Positions 26,863-54,352 of a stretch of 64,000 nt of DNA are shown one piece after another. The stretch's first letter is position 1; each line of letters begins with the position of its first letter. The DNA lies in assembly GCA_036130055.1 (NCBI GenBank), contig JAYYOR010000027.1, forward strand, positions 121,532 through 185,531, written 5' to 3'. The translations under genes were made by a program, and so were the position numbers. A model generated the notes under the pieces. The model did not search any database, was not told the DNA's origin, and saw only the letters and a list, made by a program, of their open reading frames with translations. This DNA is from Pseudomonadota bacterium (GTDB taxonomy: Bacteria; Pseudomonadota; Gammaproteobacteria; Ga0077536).

Positions 26863-28316
26863 TGACAGAAATTATTTCTCTGGAACCGGCAGTCAAGAAA
26901 ATAATCGCTGATACCGAAACACCTCTCAGCGTTTACCTTAAACTAGCCAACAAAAAAAATACTTTTCTACTTGAATCAGTCGAAGGCGGAGAAAAATGGG
27001 GCAGATACTCCATTATCGGCCTCCCTTCAAAGAAAATTATAGTCGTCAAAGGGTCGTCGTTTAAAATAATGGAAAATGGTTTAACGATTAAATCAGTTAA
27101 TACAGATGATCCATTGAAATTAGTCGAGGAATATAAAAAGTACTTTATAGCATGTAATACAGAGAAACTACCCAGGTTTTGCGGAGGCCTCGTCGGATAT
27201 TTCAGCTTCGACACGATACGATACACAGAAAAAAAATTAAATTACAAAAATAATAAGTCTAACCTTGACACACCGGACATCTTGTTATTATTTGTTGATA
27301 ATTTTGTAGTCTTCGATAATTTAAAAAATGAACTCACTATCGTCAAATATTTTAAGCAAAATGATATTGAAGCCCGAACAGAAAGTGAGAAATTAGTCGA
27401 GGAAATAAGTTTAACTTTAAAAAACAAAGCGAATATAACTCCAAACTACGACAAGATTTCCCAAAAACACTTAAATGTAAATTCAGAATTCAAAAAAGAA
27501 AAATTTCTGGAAGCGGTAAATCAAGTTAAAAGCTATATAAATGAAGGTGACGCGATGCAGGTTGTATTATCTCAACGGTTCTGGACTGAATTTGATAACG
27601 AGCCAATAAGCCTGTATCGAGCACTCAGACATTTAAACCCCTCTCCATACTTATTTTATTTCAATTTCGGTGATTTCCACGTTGTAGGTTCTTCTCCGGA
27701 AATCCTTGTCCGGTTTGAGGACGGTAAAGTTACGACTAGGCCTTTAGCAGGAACTAGGCCAAGAGGAAAAGATGAAGCTCAAGACAAAGCTTTGGAAATT
27801 GAACTTTTAAATGACCCCAAAGAGCTTGCTGAGCATTTAATGCTAATTGATTTAGGTCGGAATGATATCGGAAAAATCTGCGTAACAGGGTCTGTTAGGG
27901 TAACCGAAAAAATGATTATAGAACGCTTCTCCCATGTGATGCATATCTCCTCGAACGTAGAAGGGGTTTTAAAAGAGGATCAAAACGTATTTGATATACT
28001 TCGTGCCACTCTTCCTGTAGGTACTCTTTCTGGAGCACCAAAAATCCGTGCAATAGAGATAATTGACGAGTTAGAACCCTCAACAAGAGGAATTTATGGA
28101 GGCGCTGTCGGTTACATCACTTGGACAGGAGAGATGGACACTGCAATAGCGATAAGAACGGGAATCATAAAGAACAAAAAACTGTATGTGCAGGCTGGAT
28201 GCGGAATAGTTGCGGACTCAAAAGCTGAGTCTGAATGGGAGGAAACAGTAAATAAAGGAAAGGCGGTTTTTCACGCTGCCAAACTGGCAATGAATTGTCT
28301 AAAACTGAATGCTTAA
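26862..28316 (+). CDS. trpE: Anthranilate synthase component I (chorismate-binding enzyme)
   Basis: 484 aa with an N-terminal 'LLES...RYS' Trp-feedback motif, plus 'NPSPYLFYF', 'PLAGTRPRG' and 'TLSGAPK'. These favour TrpE over PabB. Confidence 0.7.
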   Translation: MTEIISLEPAVKKIIADTETPLSVYLKLANKKNTFLLESVEGGEKWGRYSIIGLPSKKIIVVKGSSFKIMENGLTIKSVNTDDPLKLVEEYKKYFIACNTEKLPRFCGGLVGYFSFDTIRYTEKKLNYKNNKSNLDTPDILLLFVDNFVVFDNLKNELTIVKYFKQNDIEARTESEKLVEEISLTLKNKANITPNYDKISQKHLNVNSEFKKEKFLEAVNQVKSYINEGDAMQVVLSQRFWTEFDNEPISLYRALRHLNPSPYLFYFNFGDFHVVGSSPEILVRFEDGKVTTRPLAGTRPRGKDEAQDKALEIELLNDPKELAEHLMLIDLGRNDIGKICVTGSVRVTEKMIIERFSHVMHISSNVEGVLKEDQNVFDILRATLPVGTLSGAPKIRAIEIIDELEPSTRGIYGGAVGYITWTGEMDTAIAIRTGIIKNKKLYVQAGCGIVADSKAESEWEETVNKGKAVFHAAKLAMNCLKLNA

Positions 28317-29904
28317 AAAAATGAGCATTCTATTTGAGCAAAGAGTAAAATTTATTACAGCCGGTGAAAATAGTAGCCTTCTAAAAAATGGGCTTAAGGG
28401 ACTCGAAAAAGAAAGTTTAAGAGTTACGCGTTCTGGTTCGGTATCTCAAAATATGCACCCAGCCGAATGGGGAGCAGCTTTAACAAACCCCCATATAACC
28501 ACCGATTATTCTGAAGCTTTGCCGGAATTCATCACCCCACCTTTTGAAAGTACAAATGAGACATATGAATTTCTAACGGATATCCATAGTTTTGCAATCG
28601 CTACTCTTCCAGAAAACGAAATAATCTGGAACAACAGTATGCCGTGCGACATCAACGATGAAAAAGAGATACCTATAGCAAGATATGGCAAATCAAATCA
28701 GGGTAGAATGCGTCACATTTATAGAGTTGGGTTAGATTATAGATATGGAAGAAGAATGCAGGCAATAGCTGGAACACACTTCAACTACTCGTTACCAGAA
28801 CAATTTTGGGAACATGGCAATGAAATGTTTATGATGACCTCAGAGAATTCTACGAAATTAAAAAGAAACCCGGTTTATTTAGGTTTGGCGAGGAATTACC
28901 TCCGCTATGGATGGTTAGTTCTTTTGCTATTTGGGTGCTCTCCTGCCTGCTGCAAATCCTACCTTCCTCAACGAAATAGTAGATTCAAACCTCTCAGGAA
29001 CAGTTCCTTAGTTGCTCCTTATGGCACTAGTCTGAGAATGAGTGATGTTGGATACAAAAATAAAAACCAAGCCCATTTAAAAATCAAACTAAATAATATT
29101 GAAGGTTATATCGGAGCACTTAATAAAGCAATGAGAACGCCCTACCCAGAGTATGAGGCAATCGGGATATATGAGGAAAGCAAACAAATTCAACTAAGCG
29201 CAAATTTATTGCAAATCGAAAACGAATACTATTCTTCCATTCGACCTAAAGGGAATGCCCTTGAAGGTCAGAGACCTTCTATTGCTCTTCGAAACAAAGG
29301 GATCCAATATATCGAAATGAGAAGTCTCGATGTTAATCCAATGAATCCTTTTGGCGTTGAGAAAGATTGTCTTTTATTTTGTGAGATTTTTTTGATTTAC
29401 TGCCTACTCGAAGAAAGTCCTCTCATTTCCGATAGTGAACATGAAATTTTAGAATATAACGAGTTATCGGTAGCACTTCGAGGTCGTCAACCCAATTTGA
29501 AGCTTATAACGGACACAGAAGGCAACAAAAGCAAAATAATAGATTGGTCTAATATGCTATTAGTTAGAATGCTTCCCATTGCTGAAGCTCTTGACCGAGG
29601 ATATAAAACAACAAAATACAGCGAAACACTAAAAAGCCAACTCAAACTTTTGAAGGAGCCTGACTTATTGCCTTCAGCAAAGTTTCACCAGCTGCTTGTT
29701 GACTCTAGGCAAGAATTTCAAAATTTTAATCTTGAGCTTTCTATTAAAAATACAGACGAGATACGGAAAAAGAAGCTTACTAAAGAGCAAAGTAGCTACT
29801 TCCAATCCGTAAATCACGCCTCTTGGGAAAAACAAAAAAAACTAGAAATGGAAACCATTAATCATAAATTAAGCGACTATATCAAAAATTATCTCTCAGA
29901 TTAG
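28309..29904 (+). CDS. gshA: Glutamate--cysteine ligase (E. coli type)
   Basis: 531 aa. 'LRVTRSGSVSQNMHPAEWGAALTNPHITTDYSEALPEFITPP' matches E. coli GshA closely. Confidence 0.85.
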   Translation: MLKKMSILFEQRVKFITAGENSSLLKNGLKGLEKESLRVTRSGSVSQNMHPAEWGAALTNPHITTDYSEALPEFITPPFESTNETYEFLTDIHSFAIATLPENEIIWNNSMPCDINDEKEIPIARYGKSNQGRMRHIYRVGLDYRYGRRMQAIAGTHFNYSLPEQFWEHGNEMFMMTSENSTKLKRNPVYLGLARNYLRYGWLVLLLFGCSPACCKSYLPQRNSRFKPLRNSSLVAPYGTSLRMSDVGYKNKNQAHLKIKLNNIEGYIGALNKAMRTPYPEYEAIGIYEESKQIQLSANLLQIENEYYSSIRPKGNALEGQRPSIALRNKGIQYIEMRSLDVNPMNPFGVEKDCLLFCEIFLIYCLLEESPLISDSEHEILEYNELSVALRGRQPNLKLITDTEGNKSKIIDWSNMLLVRMLPIAEALDRGYKTTKYSETLKSQLKLLKEPDLLPSAKFHQLLVDSRQEFQNFNLELSIKNTDEIRKKKLTKEQSSYFQSVNHASWEKQKKLEMETINHKLSDYIKNYLSD

Positions 29905-29908
29905 CAAT

Positions 29909-30430
29909 ATGACGAAAGCGAACCACAGAACTAAATTTATTATAAAATTTTTGCCCTTATTTGTGGTGGCTTTTATTCTTTTTTTTTGTCAACGCCAGGG
30001 TCTGTCAATCGAGAAACAAGATAGCAAAGAATTGCAAAATAATTTTCAGACTATACTGCAAACCGACATAAATAGGCCTCTCAGTCAAGAAGCAAAAAAA
30101 ATTTTAGAGCAGAATGGAACTGAACCCCCCTTTTCAAGTCCACTTCTGTACGAGAAGAGAAAAGGAACATATCACTGTGCCAAATGCGGCAATTTATTAT
30201 TCACCTCTGAAATGAAGTATGAAAGCGGAACTGGATGGCCATCTTTTTACGACCATGTAACAGGTAGTCTTGAGAAAAAGTTAGACTTCAGTCTTATTAT
30301 TCCGCGGACTGAATACCATTGCTCTCGCTGCGGAGGCCATCAAGGACATGTTTTTAAAGATGGTCCGGCACCCACTTTCCTACGTTGGTGCAATAATGGC
30401 TTAGCTTTAAATTTTAGACCAAGAAAATAA
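29909..30430 (+). CDS. msrB: Peptide-methionine (R)-S-oxide reductase
   Basis: 173 aa with the MsrB zinc and catalytic motifs CAKCG...GWPSF...HCSRCGGHQGHVF, and an N-terminal hydrophobic segment. Confidence 0.85.
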   Translation: MTKANHRTKFIIKFLPLFVVAFILFFCQRQGLSIEKQDSKELQNNFQTILQTDINRPLSQEAKKILEQNGTEPPFSSPLLYEKRKGTYHCAKCGNLLFTSEMKYESGTGWPSFYDHVTGSLEKKLDFSLIIPRTEYHCSRCGGHQGHVFKDGPAPTFLRWCNNGLALNFRPRK

Positions 30431-46527: not shown

Positions 46528-47352
46528 TTAGGAAGAACTACTAGTACCCAACTTCAAACCACACTTATCGAGACTAAAGTCGAAGAGAAATGTATCTGCG
46601 AGATTTGATGGCACTAAGGCGAAAAAGCCTAAAATATCGGTTTTTCGACCTGGTTGCTCTTTTCTCAATTAGTAATCAATTTTTTATTCTCTTTCGTTGT
46701 AAGTATTCTTGGTAGCCATATTGGTCACAAGGTATCATCAGAAGAGACTGTTGACTTGAATAAAAGAAAATGTCTTTTTCGAAACAGTAAAAAAGCGGTC
46801 TAATCACTATATTTTATACATCGTCGCTTAACAACTTAGGAGGCATCGCTTTCAAGCTCGAGACATAAAAGATATTTAAAAACAGAGTTCCAATTATATC
46901 ATCTAAGTGATGTCCGAAAGCTGTTTTTATAGATCCGCTGTCTTTTACAACTCTGTATATAAAACCGCCTTTAAACGTGAACAAAGTCTACAATAAGCCT
47001 TATTCTCATCAATGTTATCCGTCACAATTGAGAAAGTATTCTGCTTCTCTATAAGGTAATTCACCTTATCGTCATCTAGATATTTTCTCATTACACCATT
47101 CGGGCAATTCGGCTGTCCTTAATCTAAATAAAAAGCAGTGGTTTCAAAATGTACCGATGCTTTCAGACTTATTTCTGTTAGTAATTTTAGTAAAGTAAAA
47201 AAGTCTTTTCCTCCTGACAAGCAAACCATAATCTTATTCCGCTCTTTTATCATTTGATAATCTTCATTAACACTACCAATGTTCCTTCTCAATCTTTGCT
47301 TCGTTTTGGTTTCGGAAAGATTTTGATTTTTTACAAAAAACATATATCGCAC
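46528..47352 (-). pseudogene. ttcA: tRNA 2-thiocytidine synthase TtcA (PP-loop ATPase) disrupted by multiple frameshifts or stops
   Basis: Only a 77-aa N-terminal ORF (47119-47352) survives, with 'KQRLRRNIG...IMVCLSGGKDF'. Downstream, three other frames carry collinear TtcA-like segments: '[56 protein letters not shown]', then '[24 protein letters not shown]...MPPKLLSDD*', then 'IVIRPLFYCFEKD...IPCDQYGYQEYLQRKRIKN*', then '...ADTFLFDFSLDKCG'. All follow the E. coli TtcA order. Confidence 0.6.
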
Positions 47353-49886: not shown

Positions 49887-50851
49887 TAATAAAATTCCTC
49901 TTTTCAGTTGTATATGTTAACTTTTACAGATTATCAAACAAGTGTACCTTTAATTTAGTGGAAACAACAGAAAACTACCTGTTAAAAACAGCTGATAATA
50001 AATTAAAAATCAAGAGAGTTATTGAAATATCAGACTCGGGAAATCTCCCTTTAATTCCTGATGCAACACCTGAGAATTTAAAAAAGATTCCATGGCTCTT
50101 TCCTGAATTTATTTCTTCCGCGCACGGCCTTAAACTTGTAATTCAGCTAATTGTGATTGAATCAAATGGTAAGATTATTATCGTAGATACCTGCGTAGGC
50201 AATCATAAAAATATATACTACAAACCTTGGGCCAATAAAGAAAATAAATTTTTAGAAAAGCTGGTAGCGCTGGGGATAAAAAGAGAGAATGTCGATTTTG
50301 TTATCTGCACTCATATTCATCTAGACCATGTAGGATGGAACACTTTTAAAAACAACGACGAATGGGAAACAACTTTTCCAAATGCTGAATATATTTTTTC
50401 AGAAAAAGAACTTGACCATGCAAGAAAATTTGAAAACACTCTGCATGGAGACATTCTCAAAGAATCGATAGATCCAGTACTAAGAGCAGGCCAAGCCAAG
50501 TTGATTTCACCACCCTATTCCGTAGATAAAAACATAAAAATCATCAATACTCCAGGTCACACGCCCGGTCACATGAGCGTTGTTATTAACTATGGGGGTT
50601 TTAATGCCTATGTCACGGGGGATATGATTCACCATCCTTGTCAAATAGCATACCCTGAATGGGGGACTTATTATGATGTTGATAAGGAATTAGCGATGAA
50701 AACAAGAAAAAGATTTTTGGAAAAAAATGCCGAACAGGACAGCATAATTATCGGGACGCATTTTTCGGGCTCAAGTATCGGTAAAATTATTAAAGATGGC
50801 GATAAATATGCTTTTGATATATTATGTGAAAATCATGAGCAAAAAGATTAA
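49877..50851 (+). CDS. MBL-fold metallo-hydrolase
   Basis: 324 aa with the HxHxDH motif (CTHIHLDHVGW) and downstream His/Asp ligands. Confidence 0.7.
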   Translation: MMALIKFLFSVVYVNFYRLSNKCTFNLVETTENYLLKTADNKLKIKRVIEISDSGNLPLIPDATPENLKKIPWLFPEFISSAHGLKLVIQLIVIESNGKIIIVDTCVGNHKNIYYKPWANKENKFLEKLVALGIKRENVDFVICTHIHLDHVGWNTFKNNDEWETTFPNAEYIFSEKELDHARKFENTLHGDILKESIDPVLRAGQAKLISPPYSVDKNIKIINTPGHTPGHMSVVINYGGFNAYVTGDMIHHPCQIAYPEWGTYYDVDKELAMKTRKRFLEKNAEQDSIIIGTHFSGSSIGKIIKDGDKYAFDILCENHEQKD

Positions 50852-50903
50852 ATGGTACTATTTTCGAAAAGGCTGAACGACTTGCGTCAAGGCATCCAAG
50901 TTT

Positions 50904-51176
50904 TTGGAAGCGAATTCAATCGAAGTCTTAGATGAAATCTCAGCGAGCAAAAAACTTAACGAGACCGACGCTAGGAATCTATTAAAAAAAGCGTCTAAAT
51001 TAATGGTTTTTAAAGGAAAGAAAACTGACACCTTCAACATCAAAGACGAAAAGACTTCCTTAATCGTTCCATATATGCTTGGCCCGACCGGCAATCTGCG
51101 TGCCCCTACTCTAATTTATAATAGTGTAATTATAGTTGGTTTCAATGAAGAAAAGTTTAACGAATTTTTCTCTTAA
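50904..51176 (+). CDS. ArsC/Spx-family (YffB-like) protein, apparently 5'-truncated by a frameshift
   Basis: The 90-aa TTG-start ORF matches YffB from 'LEANSIEV' onward. An ATG at 50853 in another frame encodes 'MVLFSKRL', which matches the YffB N-terminus (MITLYGIK). Joining the two frames near 50875 gives 'MVLFSKRLTTCVKASKFLEANSI...', collinear with '[25 protein letters not shown]'. Confidence 0.45.
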   Translation: MEANSIEVLDEISASKKLNETDARNLLKKASKLMVFKGKKTDTFNIKDEKTSLIVPYMLGPTGNLRAPTLIYNSVIIVGFNEEKFNEFFS

Positions 51177-51184
51177 AGAATTGT

Positions 51185-52177
51185 GTGATTTTAATGACAG
51201 ATGAAAACAATGTTAGATCCCAAGGTAACGGATTTAACGATCTAGAAATATCAGAAAAAGAAATTGAAAAAAAACTTAGATCTGTTGTCTCCGTAACAAC
51301 AACAATACCCGATCATGCACAAACGGCGAATATTTTAGGTACTAAAAGATCTGGTAATGGCGTGCTCATAAACCAAATGGGCTTAATTGTTACTATTGGA
51401 TATTTACTAGCAGAAGCAAAACAGATTTGGATAACGACAGCACATGGCGAAACTGTTACAGCAGATACCGTACTATATGATTATGAATCTGGATTAGGCT
51501 TATTAAAACCTTTGAAGCCTATATCCATTCCTGCTATCGGTATAGCCAACCAAAATCATAAGGTAAATTCGGGTGACAAAGGGTATCTTCTGGCAGGTTT
51601 CGGTGGCTTAGAACAGACTATCAATGTCGATATTGCTAGTTGTGACAGCTTCACCGGATACTGGGAGTACGTATTGGACAGAGCGTTTTATACGGCCCCA
51701 GCTCATCCTAGTTGGGGTGGGGCGGCCCTATTAAATAAAAAAGGCGAACTCACTGGGATAGGTTCTTTGTATTTGGAAAACCCACCCGCAAGTAAAAAAG
51801 AATTCTCAGGAAATCTTTGTGTTCCAATTGATGCATTATGGCCATTATTTTCAGAAATTAAGGAAAATGGAAATGTAAAAAACAAGGAGCGACCTTATCT
51901 TGGTTTCTTCGTCTCCGTAGTAGAAAATCAATTCGTAGTATTGGGACTCTACAATTCATCTCCAGCCGCTCTAGCTGGAATCAAGGCCGGAGATATAATA
52001 AAAAGTATAAACGGAGTAGTTCCAGTAGCTTTGAGTGAGTTGTTCAAGTTAATATGGAAAGCTGGCCCAGCAGGTACAGTAATATCAATTGAAATCGAGA
52101 GCGGAGATAAGCATACTATAATTGATGTTGTGTCCGCTGAACGCAAAGCCATATGGATTAGTCCAACTCTGCACTAA
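51185..52177 (+). CDS. Trypsin-like (HtrA-type) protease-fold protein with C-terminal PDZ domain; catalytic residues appear substituted
   Basis: 330 aa. A PDZ-like segment 'GIKAGDIIKSINGVVPV' lies at the C-terminus. My by-eye alignment to DegP places Tyr or Ala where the catalytic His belongs and gives 'PSWGGAAL' where GNSGGAL belongs. Confidence 0.45.
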   Translation: MILMTDENNVRSQGNGFNDLEISEKEIEKKLRSVVSVTTTIPDHAQTANILGTKRSGNGVLINQMGLIVTIGYLLAEAKQIWITTAHGETVTADTVLYDYESGLGLLKPLKPISIPAIGIANQNHKVNSGDKGYLLAGFGGLEQTINVDIASCDSFTGYWEYVLDRAFYTAPAHPSWGGAALLNKKGELTGIGSLYLENPPASKKEFSGNLCVPIDALWPLFSEIKENGNVKNKERPYLGFFVSVVENQFVVLGLYNSSPAALAGIKAGDIIKSINGVVPVALSELFKLIWKAGPAGTVISIEIESGDKHTIIDVVSAERKAIWISPTLH

Positions 52178-52219
52178 AATCATGGGAATTTAAAAAAACA
52201 TAACGGTAGCGTCGAAATT

Positions 52220-53113
52220 ATGGAATCGAGAAACTTAAAAATTGAGAAAATCAAAAAGGGACCCGGATTTATAGCTGCACTCGACCAGAGTGGAGGAAGC
52301 ACTCCAAAGGCTCTTCAAAACTACGGAATAACCTCAGACGAATGGTCTAATGAAGAAGAGATGTTTTCCTTAGTACACAAAATGAGAGAACGAATTGTTT
52401 CAAATCCATCGTTTAACGGCGACAAAATCATTGGTGCTATTCTTTTTGAGAAAACAATGAACTCTAAATTCTGCGGCCTCGATTGTGCTGATTATTTATG
52501 GGACAAAAAGAATATCGTACCTTTTCTAAAAATTGATAAAGGCCTTGCTGACGAAGAGGATGGCGTGCAAGTAATGAAGCCAAATCCCCACCTATTAGAC
52601 ATATTGAAAATCGCTAGGAAAAAAGGAATTTTTGGAACCAAAATGAGGTCAGTCATCAAGACACCCAATCCTTCAGGGATAAAGAGAGTAGTAAGACAGC
52701 AATTCGATACGGCCAGGATAATTATGGACGAGGGTTTTGTGCCAATTATAGAGCCTGAAGTTGACATTCATTGTAAAACTAAATCCGAGACTGAAGTCAT
52801 CTTATTGGAGTTTTTGTGCGCTGAACTAAACAATCTACATAACGATGACCGCATAATATTCAAATTAACACTCCCCGATTTACCGAACTTCTATCAGGAG
52901 TTATGCAAAGAAGAAAAAGTCCTAAGGGTAGTAGCATTATCCGGAGGGTACGCTCAAAACGTAGCTAACGAAAAATTAAGCAAAAACAATGGAGTAATCG
53001 CAAGCTTCTCTAGAGCTTTGACTGAAAGTCTTTATGTAAAAATGACTGACAAAACCTTTACAGAAACCATCGAGATGGCAATCGATAATATTTATAATGC
53101 GTCAATAACTTAA
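52220..53113 (+). CDS. fda: Fructose-bisphosphate aldolase class I (Staphylococcus Fda-type)
   Basis: 297 aa. 'KGPGFIAALDQSGGSTPKALQNYGI...' is near-identical in pattern to S. aureus Fda. Confidence 0.85.
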   Translation: MESRNLKIEKIKKGPGFIAALDQSGGSTPKALQNYGITSDEWSNEEEMFSLVHKMRERIVSNPSFNGDKIIGAILFEKTMNSKFCGLDCADYLWDKKNIVPFLKIDKGLADEEDGVQVMKPNPHLLDILKIARKKGIFGTKMRSVIKTPNPSGIKRVVRQQFDTARIIMDEGFVPIIEPEVDIHCKTKSETEVILLEFLCAELNNLHNDDRIIFKLTLPDLPNFYQELCKEEKVLRVVALSGGYAQNVANEKLSKNNGVIASFSRALTESLYVKMTDKTFTETIEMAIDNIYNASIT

Positions 53114-53127
53114 CAGAGGTTTTTTTA

Positions 53128-53571
53128 ATGAGTAAGTCTATAATTGGTAAAAATTTAAGCTACCTATCCTTCGTGAATCAAGATGGAAAATCTATTTGCC
53201 TTAGTGATTTTTCGGATAACTTCGTTCTGTTATGGTGGTATCCGAAAGCAGATACACCGGGGTGAACCATTGAAGGCAAAGGGTTCCGTGATAGAATCCA
53301 AGATTTTAATAAAAAAGGCGTAGTTGTATTTGGAATTAGTGGAGATTCCCCAGCTGACAATAAATTATTTCAAAATAAATTTTCGTTCCCTTTCGAGATG
53401 CTGTCTGATTTTGAACTTAAGGAATCAAAGAAACTAGGTCTTTGTAAAGAGGAAAGTACTTATGCGACAAGGGTAACCCTCATCTTGGACCATAAAGGGG
53501 TTGTTACGAATTTTTTCGATGACGTCAATCCTCAAACCCATGCTTCAGATGTTCTAAGAATCTTTAATTAA
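53128..53571 (+). CDS. bcp: Bcp-type peroxiredoxin with in-frame TGA (candidate selenocysteine) at the peroxidatic Cys position
   Basis: ATG at 53128 with an AGAGG RBS 8 nt upstream. The protein reads 'MSKSIIGKNLSYLSFVNQDGKSICLSDFSDNFVLLWWYPKADTPG-[TGA at 53263-53265]-TIEGKGFRDRIQDFNKKGVVVFGISGDSPADNKLFQNKFSFPFEMLSDFELKESKKLGL...RIFN*'. The Bcp active site is YPKDxTPGCT. A hairpin tgaacc-a-ttg-AAGG-caa-ag-ggttcc starts at the TGA. The product would be 147 aa with the stop recoded. Confidence 0.6.
53263..53287 (+). other. Candidate bacterial SECIS-like stem-loop overlapping or just downstream of the in-frame UGA
   Basis: UGAACC A UUG [AAGG] CAA AG GGUUCC: a two-part stem with GG in the apical loop. 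Confidence 0.4.
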
Positions 53572-53575
53572 TAAA

Positions 53576-54352
53576 TTAGTAATTACTGAAAAAATTATTA
53601 ATTTTTTCGATAAATTGAAGTTCCTTTTCTACAAACGGCCAATGCCCACAATCCGATATGACGGCAAGTTGTGAGCTTGAGATTTCAGCATTTAAAAACT
53701 CATGGTATTTTACAGGAGTGAGGAGATCCTTATCTCCACACAAGATTAAGGCTCGAAAATCGAGTCCTTTTAACCGCCTCGTAAAATCAAACGAATCGGC
53801 TGCAAGCCAATCCTTGTAAACCACTAAAGGATCAACATCGTTCATGATCGCTAAAAGGTAATCCAGCAAATGCTTATTAGATGTATCGTAGATGGAATTT
53901 AATAAAAATTCTTTGTTCAATTGTGAATTTTCGTTTTTCCGTTCAATCTCCGTTAGAAATGAGTCCGGTACTCGCAAACGGGCTCCAGTCGCAACTAATA
54001 TCAATGATTCAACCAGTTTTGGCATATAAACCCCTATAGCCATTCCAATTGCTCCCCCCAATGAATGTCCTAATAAATTCCATTCTCCAAGATCTATTCT
54101 CTTAAGTAACTCGGAACATATAAATGCGTGGTCAACTACATTTCTGTAACCTTCGCCTTCTGATTGACCATGCCCACTCAAATCAATTGTTAAAATGTTG
54201 AATTTTTTTGAAAGGTTTTCCACAACGTTCGAAAAGACTCGAGAATCGCTTGATGCACCATGAATAAAGAACAGATTTTTTCTTGAGGGGCTTTGGAAAT
54301 TTACGCTATAGTAAATTTTTTTGTCTTCTATAACTTCTATTGGCACAACCAA
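53576..54352 (-). CDS. Alpha/beta-fold hydrolase
   Basis: 258 aa with nucleophile elbow GHSLGG and an HGASS start typical of the alpha/beta hydrolase 6 family. Confidence 0.7.
   Translation of the reverse strand: MVVPIEVIEDKKIYYSVNFQSPSRKNLFFIHGASSDSRVFSNVVENLSKKFNILTIDLSGHGQSEGEGYRNVVDHAFICSELLKRIDLGEWNLLGHSLGGAIGMAIGVYMPKLVESLILVATGARLRVPDSFLTEIERKNENSQLNKEFLLNSIYDTSNKHLLDYLLAIMNDVDPLVVYKDWLAADSFDFTRRLKGLDFRALILCGDKDLLTPVKYHEFLNAEISSSQLAVISDCGHWPFVEKELQFIEKINNFFSNY

Follow-up and report, generated by a model that had tools for sequence, protein, structure and literature searches.

Peroxiredoxins (Prx) that carry selenocysteine (Sec) at the active site are already known and are common in the ocean, where the family has been recognized among bacteria since 2005. 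In the Sargasso Sea, 43 genes of a Sec-containing peroxiredoxin family (COG1225/pfam00578, with the motif TxxU) made it the second most abundant family, and arsenate-reductase-like selenoproteins were reported in the same study (Zhang, Fomenko & Gladyshev 2005, PMC1088965). The Global Ocean Sampling (GOS) data yielded 253 peroxiredoxin (TxxU) and 42 "Arsenate reductase 2" (UxxC) selenoproteins (Zhang & Gladyshev 2008, PMC2398784). PrxU of Eubacterium acidaminophilum, also a TxxU protein, is an experimentally verified Sec peroxiredoxin according to the review that cites it (Sohling et al. 2001, ref. 83 in PMC13188914), and this review, of 2026, counts Prx with the selenoproteins verified by experiment (PMC13188914). 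Here we describe a stretch of 64,000 nucleotides (contig JAYYOR010000027.1, referred to as the window) in which a gene for a Bcp/PrxQ-type peroxiredoxin has an in-frame UGA at the codon of the peroxidatic cysteine, followed by a hairpin that resembles a selenocysteine insertion sequence (SECIS). Judging from sequence comparisons, we put the probability that the locus encodes a genuine Sec-containing Bcp/PrxQ-type peroxiredoxin at about 0.9.

The predicted product shares with the marine Sec peroxiredoxins the same domain, the TxxU motif with a peroxidatic Sec, a bacterial SECIS that follows directly, and marine provenance, and nothing essential differs between them when the comparison is made by published description rather than by alignment to the AACY sequences. 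The original prediction for this locus had stated that Sec peroxiredoxins are reported from marine bacteria, and both ocean surveys cited above do describe the TxxU family. With PrxU the window protein has the TxxU Sec in common; the host of PrxU is a Gram-positive anaerobe, and the comparison made here is by motif. To the marine family the locus adds an invariant 19-nt SECIS core, a genomic context resembling that of the gammaproteobacterium TMED69, and the lack of a Cys at the known resolving positions. It leaves the understanding of selenocysteine decoding and of peroxiredoxins unchanged. Its practical value lies in annotation: public databases hold many copies of the gene that are either mis-translated (with Trp) or uncalled, and the signature made up of TGA, 15 nt and GGRTTCCGTGAYMGAAYC provides a simple nucleotide marker for this abundant marine family.

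A peroxiredoxin frame containing an in-frame UGA

Translation of the frame listed in Table 1 gave 147 sense codons with a sole in-frame TGA. The mechanical list of open reading frames (ORFs) shows the gene as two pieces, 53128-53265 (45 aa) and 53398-53571 (57 aa). The original prediction had joined these into one 147-codon frame with a ribosome binding site, split in the ORF track by the TGA, and both the coordinates and the AGAGG were confirmed. The AGAGG begins 2 nt past the stop of the upstream gene, which was identified as a class I fructose-bisphosphate aldolase by NCBIfam NF003784 (E=1e-132).

When the TGA was translated as Cys, the protein matched the Pfam domain AhpC-TSA (PF00578) at E=8e-26 with 90.8 bits (cut-off 26) over residues 13-127, and the Redoxin domain (PF08534) at E=1e-13. 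The AhpC-TSA match runs across the TGA, in agreement with the earlier claim that the two halves are collinear with the Bcp family. The best solved relative in a search of the PDB was 3drn (E=3e-19), followed by 2a4v, 5enu and entries for the Xanthomonas campestris BCP. All of the top 13 matches were Bcp-type chains or close relatives, including yeast Dot5, a Burkholderia entry labeled AhpC/TSA and an archaeal "peroxiredoxin-like protein", while typical 2-Cys Prx chains matched only at E ~1e-9. The PDB alignments place the TGA codon at the peroxidatic residue of the DTPG[C/S]T motif in 3drn, 2a4v, 5enu and 5iox, as expected if the TGA stands where Bcp/PrxQ proteins have their catalytic Cys, and they align Arg115 with the conserved catalytic Arg of 3drn. 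The predicted active site is P39-K-A-D-T43-P-G-U46 (PxxxTxxU) plus Arg115.

The characterized Cys-type BCP/PrxQ proteins (Sulfolobus solfataricus Bcp1, 3drn; yeast Dot5, 2a4v; Burkholderia, 5enu; X. campestris, 5iiz/3gkk) have the same AhpC/TSA thioredoxin fold, and they are collinear with the window protein over ~130 residues, with the PxxxTxxC motif and the conserved Arg in common. The window protein differs from them in the predicted Sec for Cys and in having a resolving Cys at neither the +5 nor the alpha-3 position. Because it scores under the NCBIfam equivalog cut-offs for both Bcp (NF006960, 92.7 bits against 140) and PrxQ (NF053650, 73.3 against 260), we place the peroxiredoxin, by its sequence, in a diverged clade within the BCP subfamily and not as an orthologue or equivalog of the characterized enzymes.

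Table 1. Positions, within the window, of the two UGA-containing genes and their associated elements.
Feature	Position	Strand	Remarks
Bcp/PrxQ-type peroxiredoxin gene, predicted selenoprotein	53128..53571	+	147 residues; TAA stop 53569-53571 included
Shine-Dalgarno-like AGAGG	53115..53119	+	8 nt before ATG; read from sequence
In-frame UGA, proposed Sec codon 46	53263..53265	+	peroxidatic-Cys position; sequence, homologue conservation
Conserved SECIS-like hairpin	53281..53299	+	GGGUUC 53281-53286, loop CGUGAUA 53287-53293, GAAUCC 53294-53299
Two-part hairpin with AAGG loop, competing local fold	53265..53285	+	window minimum free energy fold; not conserved
ArsC-family gene, predicted (seleno)protein	50835..51176	+	113 residues; TGA 50874-50876 (codon 14); motif U-T-T-C
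SECIS-like hairpin of ArsC-family gene	50892..50911	+	stem GC.UCCAA / UUGGA.GC; GUUU loop 50900-50903

Conservation of the UGA codon and of a downstream hairpin

GTDB was scanned, at one genome per species, with a query limited to the protein segment encoded past the TGA, and the best 80 loci were analyzed. A TGA directly precedes T-[I/V]-E-G in 80/80 of these loci, whose proteins are 40-61% identical to that of the window; in every one the frame past the TGA is open and conserved. TGA is also present in three further homologues (L094-L096). The 80 loci come from metagenome-assembled genomes (MAGs) labeled Alpha- and Gammaproteobacteria, SAR324, Gemmatimonadota, Verrucomicrobiales and Latescibacterota. 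Two bins from the same study, one labeled Verrucomicrobiales (L005, 6152-6211) and the other Rickettsiales (L009, 2221-2280), are identical in the 60 nt after the TGA; this suggests either binning contamination or very recent transfer, and caution is therefore needed over the phylum labels of the homologues.

A protein search found 236 homologues. The original prediction had asked whether homologues carry Cys or Sec at the active-site column, and among the 120 best database homologues listed this column holds Cys in 54 and Trp in 66, the Cys forms being the more distant relatives. The DNA of two Trp-bearing homologues (L001 and L002) has TGA at the active-site codon, and because both of the entries that were checked read TGA, the Trp in the database entries is taken as a gene-caller artefact produced by the use of genetic code 4 on short contigs. 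This mis-annotation is systematic: the database proteins P0001-P0069 include the 66 of the 120 closest entries with a spurious Trp at the peroxidatic position.

Tara Oceans scaffolds (L090, L093), which were reached via the GroEL of the window, are 99.44% identical to window positions 32982-54643 and carry the same peroxiredoxin TGA. No gene is called at the peroxiredoxin locus in the public records of these two scaffolds.

The conservation of the hairpin was counted over 77 distinct homologous sequences and codon usage over the 80 loci. The consensus produced by RNAalifold is a single hairpin (alignment columns 34-39 with 47-52), whose stem starts 15 nt, and whose loop starts 21 nt, after the UGA. 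The stem is paired in 77/77 sequences; five of its pairs are invariant, and the sixth is G-U in 67 sequences, A-U in nine and G-C in one. Within the loop, C-G-U-G-A-Y-M, the first five bases (C, G, U, G and A) are invariant in 81 sequences.

Three codons in this region have zero entropy: Phe+7 is TTC in 80/80 loci, Arg+8, which belongs to a six-codon family, is CGT in 80/80, and Ile+11 is ATC in 79/79 of the sequences that have Ile. Other invariant residues vary in codon, with Phe+35 divided between TTT (40) and TTC (40), Gly+23 encoded by four codons and Ser+25 by six. Across the homologous loci, synonymous sites have reached saturation, yet the protein remains conserved both before and after the TGA. 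In Cys-type relatives the residues GFRD are encoded with TTT and with CGA, CGC or CGG, no hairpin is present, and the protein diverges right after GFRD (DDYEK, DRSEE). Because TTC, CGT and ATC are frozen while codons elsewhere vary freely, and because the Cys-type relatives use other codons, selection on 53281-53299 evidently acts on the RNA and not on the protein.

Like the SECIS of E. coli fdhF and the consensus of the bacterial SECIS (bSECIS) model (bSECISearch), the element is a coding-region hairpin just past the UGA whose small apical loop has G-U on its 5' side. The window hairpin differs in that its sequence is unrelated and has no bulged U. Counted on the fdhF sequence, the GU of the window hairpin is more distant from the UGA than that of fdhF by about one codon.

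Published rules for bacterial SECIS elements give a loop of 3-9 nt on an upper stem of 4-16 bp, a distance of 16-37 nt from UGA to loop and a minimum free energy (MFE) of <= -7.5 kcal/mol (PMC13188914 Fig. 2), and they place a G at loop position 1 or 2, with G or U as the usual next base (PMC13188914). Spacing, loop size and stem length of the window hairpin all lie within these ranges, and the hairpin agrees with three of the four rules: a 7-nt loop on a 6-bp stem, G-U at loop positions 2-3 and a spacing of 21 nt. It is the MFE structure in 59/77 homologues, and in the window it becomes the MFE structure when the 12-18 nt that follow the U of the UGA are blocked, as a ribosome would do. The energy of the hairpin alone averages -6.15 kcal/mol across homologues (range -8.7 to -5.6). 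When the hairpin is forced together with a 7-bp lower stem, the 78-nt segment of the window folds at -8.8 kcal/mol, and GC-richer homologues reach -15 to -19 kcal/mol.

A lower SECIS stem (alignment columns 25-28 with 57-60) was also considered; it is 95% paired yet no better than shuffles, and because it is indistinguishable from these it is not claimed. No Rfam family matched the hairpin in a permissive scan of 50700-53700 or in a scan of the whole window at the gathering thresholds, which returned two tRNAs only. A promoter and terminator scan gave counts at chance level.

Evidence against and competing explanations

Several observations weigh against a selenoprotein at this locus and against its SECIS. 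The original prediction implies a Sec-incorporation system elsewhere in the genome. In the window itself, no selA, selB or selD was found by NCBIfam searches of 55 long ORFs plus a 90-aa ArsC-like ORF, ARAGORN found no tRNA-Sec in the 64-kb window, and tblastn of SelA, SelB and SelD against the window and all fetched loci gave no match with E. coli sequences as probes. Over the 77 distinct sequences, the pairs of the conserved hairpin show no two-sided change, that is, no covariation. Compensatory changes were also sought in the variant hairpins of L094-L096, where one-sided changes or tolerated mismatches were the only ones found. Because no pair changes on both sides, the support for the hairpin is conservation and not covariation. 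The hairpin alone, at -6.0 kcal/mol in the AT-rich window, is weaker than the bSECIS limit of -7.5 kcal/mol, a borderline value. Finally, the free mRNA segment of the window and of locus L003 prefers a different hairpin located at the UGA, with a pair probability of 0.78 compared with 0.15 for the conserved one.

This competing fold is the two-part hairpin with an AAGG loop that the original prediction had proposed as the SECIS. It does exist, as part of the MFE fold of the window. One could suppose that the selenoprotein gene is real and that either this hairpin is the SECIS or both hairpins together form a switch. The preferred folding of the free RNA in the window and L003 speaks for this proposal. 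The AAGG hairpin is, however, not conserved: no more than 81% of its cells show pairing, the inner pairs fail in 28, 50 and 15 of the 77 homologues, it is in the MFE structure of 3/77, and its mean pair probability is 0.04. Compared with shuffled sequences its stability is ordinary (z=0.34). The ribosomal footprint on the mRNA covers the bases just after the A-site codon, and the 5' arm of the AAGG hairpin would lie inside the ribosome while the UGA occupies the A site. A distance of 7 nt separates the loop of this hairpin from the UGA, and loop positions 1-2 hold no G, contrary to the published bSECIS rules (PMC13188914). We consider it improbable that this hairpin serves as the SECIS, and since only 3/77 homologues show it, the preference for it is probably incidental. 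The conserved element lies 18 bases downstream of this first placement and shares the 3' arm of the AAGG hairpin. The two compete for GGGUU, and the AAGG hairpin would sequester the conserved SECIS until opened by the ribosome.

Alternatively, the UGA might be decoded as something other than Sec, through reassignment (Trp in code 4 or Gly in code 25), near-cognate read-through as Trp or Cys, or Cys carried on tRNA-Sec. The failure to find Sec machinery in the window or in the fetched flanks is in line with such decoding, as are the many homologues rendered with Trp by database gene callers. TGA terminates 14 of the 55 long ORFs of the window, however, and because it ends these ordinary genes the standard genetic code applies. 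Trp or Gly at the peroxidatic position, where relatives carry Cys, would abolish catalysis; simple read-through needs no conserved GU-loop hairpin at SECIS distance; and a second UGA-containing redox gene of the window, described below, falls in a curated selenoprotein family. Decoding of the UGA as another amino acid therefore has little chance of being correct, and selenocysteine remains the favored reading of the codon, which bears out the main interpretation of the original prediction.

The locus could also be a pseudogene, that is, a Cys-type bcp inactivated by a nonsense mutation from TGC or TGT to TGA, with the downstream frame decaying. In the public Tara scaffolds standard gene callers miss the locus, and the window does hold one truly decayed gene, the frameshifted ttcA relic discussed below. 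We regard inactivation as very improbable all the same, given that all of the 80 best loci keep the TGA and an open, conserved downstream frame at 40-61% identity, that the protein has stayed conserved on either side of the TGA in spite of saturated synonymous sites, that a hairpin following the TGA is conserved at the nucleotide level, and that the divergence among homologues excludes copies of a single recent element.

A sequencing or assembly error hiding a true TGC or TGT can be practically dismissed, for although one relative, on a short metagenome contig (L083), has TGC with an otherwise intact hairpin, near-identical independent assemblies from different samples (L001 and the Tara scaffolds L090 and L093) all read TGA, as do 80 other genomes. 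The same near-identical Tara assemblies answer the doubt voiced with the original prediction, that the codon might really be TGC or TGT. The TGA is thus neither an error, nor a pseudogene lesion, nor a reassigned codon. The L083 sequence itself (120-572 of the 590-nt contig ENA ERZ27300294) has TGC at the Sec codon, yet keeps an intact GGGTTCCGTGATAGAATCC hairpin and the Sec-type peptide RIQD, and is explained either by a consensus error or by a switch from Sec to Cys so recent that the SECIS persists as a fossil.

Proposed mechanism, a second UGA gene and the genomic surroundings

The aldolase gene ends 14 nt upstream of the peroxiredoxin gene, and the two are probably co-transcribed. Translation would start at the ATG at 53128, and when the UGA at 53263 reaches the A site, the mRNA beyond the ribosome would fold into the 53281-53299 hairpin. 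By analogy with E. coli fdhF, this hairpin would recruit SelB-GTP-Sec-tRNASec, Sec would be inserted, and translation would continue to the TAA at 53569. Sec46, in the PxxxTxxU/Arg115 site, would then attack peroxides and be converted to a selenenic acid.

The known resolving-Cys positions hold no Cys in the window protein: position +5 is Lys51, and the alpha-3 Cys84 of X. campestris BCP aligns to Gln82. No Cys column is conserved among the Sec forms, the best reaching 58%, and the window has Val there. The absent resolving Cys points to a 1-Sec mechanism, and because there is neither a Cys at the known resolving positions nor a conserved second Cys in the Sec forms, recycling would most likely be carried out by an external thiol (glutathione, glutaredoxin or thioredoxin). 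A glutamate-cysteine ligase gene in the window is compatible with glutathione recycling, yet proves nothing.

The nearest Cys-type relatives have conserved Cys residues at window positions 93 (LLCD, 96%) and 143 (93%), where the Sec forms have Ser or Thr and Leu, respectively; loss of these Cys accompanies Sec use, in a Cys set that is dominated by one clade. The LLCD Cys was considered as a resolving Cys and rejected, as the X. campestris alignment puts the known alpha-3 resolving Cys elsewhere.

The core GGUUC-CGUGAYM-GAAUC is common to MAGs labeled Alpha- and Gammaproteobacteria, SAR324, Gemmatimonadota, Verrucomicrobiota and Latescibacterota. It is tempting to speculate, although we hold this to be doubtful, that the Sec forms make up a distinct "1-Sec" BCP clade without a resolving Cys and with this near-invariant 17-19-nt core, that they move between marine lineages as a Sec cassette, and that CGUGA is a cross-phylum SelB code. 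If that were true, the core might find use as a small and portable tag for recoding.

The second predicted selenoprotein gene, of the ArsC family, sits 2.2 kb upstream of the peroxiredoxin gene and is likewise uncalled in the near-identical Tara scaffolds. On its own, the uninterrupted 90-aa ORF (50904-51176) covers no more of the NCBIfam profile NF041106, "ArsC family (seleno)protein", than positions 21-107. Extension of this frame upstream through the TGA to the ATG yields MSKKIKWYYFRKG-U-TTC, and with U read as C the frame reaches 105.9 bits (cut-off 85) and covers profile positions 1-107 of 107. The start of the gene overlaps the end of an upstream metallo-beta-lactamase-fold gene by 17 nt. 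An identical TGA is found in the ArsC-family gene of L003 and of the Tara scaffolds L090 and L093. Its own SECIS-like hairpin has a loop that begins 23 nt after the UGA and is the MFE structure with or without the first 15 nt blocked; in the L003 version an A-U pair is changed to G-U and the loop is GUUC. With its full-length profile match and UxxC motif, the gene resembles NF041106 and the "Arsenate reductase 2, UxxC" family of the GOS study, and no difference from these was noted. NF041106 is listed among the high-confidence predicted selenoproteins (PMC13188914), and the function of proteins of this type is uncharacterized in the literature. Both selenoprotein genes fit known families on every feature tested, and with two such genes within 2.3 kb, this TMED69-like lineage of gammaproteobacteria probably uses selenium.

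The host is a marine gammaproteobacterium resembling TMED69. Window positions 42982-63509 are fully syntenic with contig NHDW01000004 of the MAG "Methylococcaceae bacterium TMED69", including both selenoprotein genes and a downstream tRNA-Met, with protein identities of 26-98% (mostly 57-98%; GroEL 98%).

In tRNA scans of the 80 loci a single tRNA-SeC was found, on the minus strand at 6106-6200 of L024 (anticodon TCA). This 7.6-kb contig belongs to a proteobacterial MAG; the tRNA gene lies ~3 kb downstream of the Sec-Prx homologue that the contig carries, and no selA, selB or selD was found beside it. Together with the second predicted selenoprotein gene of the window, this tRNA-SeC speaks indirectly for Sec machinery. 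When the 80 loci were searched for other recurrent TGA-interrupted ORFs, the Prx cluster was the only one recovered, the rest being off-frame artefacts of GC-rich genes.

A corresponding search of the intergenic gaps of the window found no TGA-interrupted ORF, and the ttcA relic surfaced in its course. This frameshifted remnant of a tRNA 2-thiocytidine synthetase gene occupies ~46574-47250 on the minus strand, within a 1.2-kb "empty" gap. Pieces joined from three frames match NF007972 at E=1.8e-66, the PP-loop SGGKDS is changed to SGGKDF and one Cys motif is lost, and the relic is probably a pseudogene in a streamlined genome. Elsewhere in the window, at 28309-30430 on the plus strand, the glutamate-cysteine ligase gene (gshA) adjoins that of a methionine-R-sulfoxide reductase (msrB); neither has an in-frame TGA, and the pair forms a further small redox-defence cluster.

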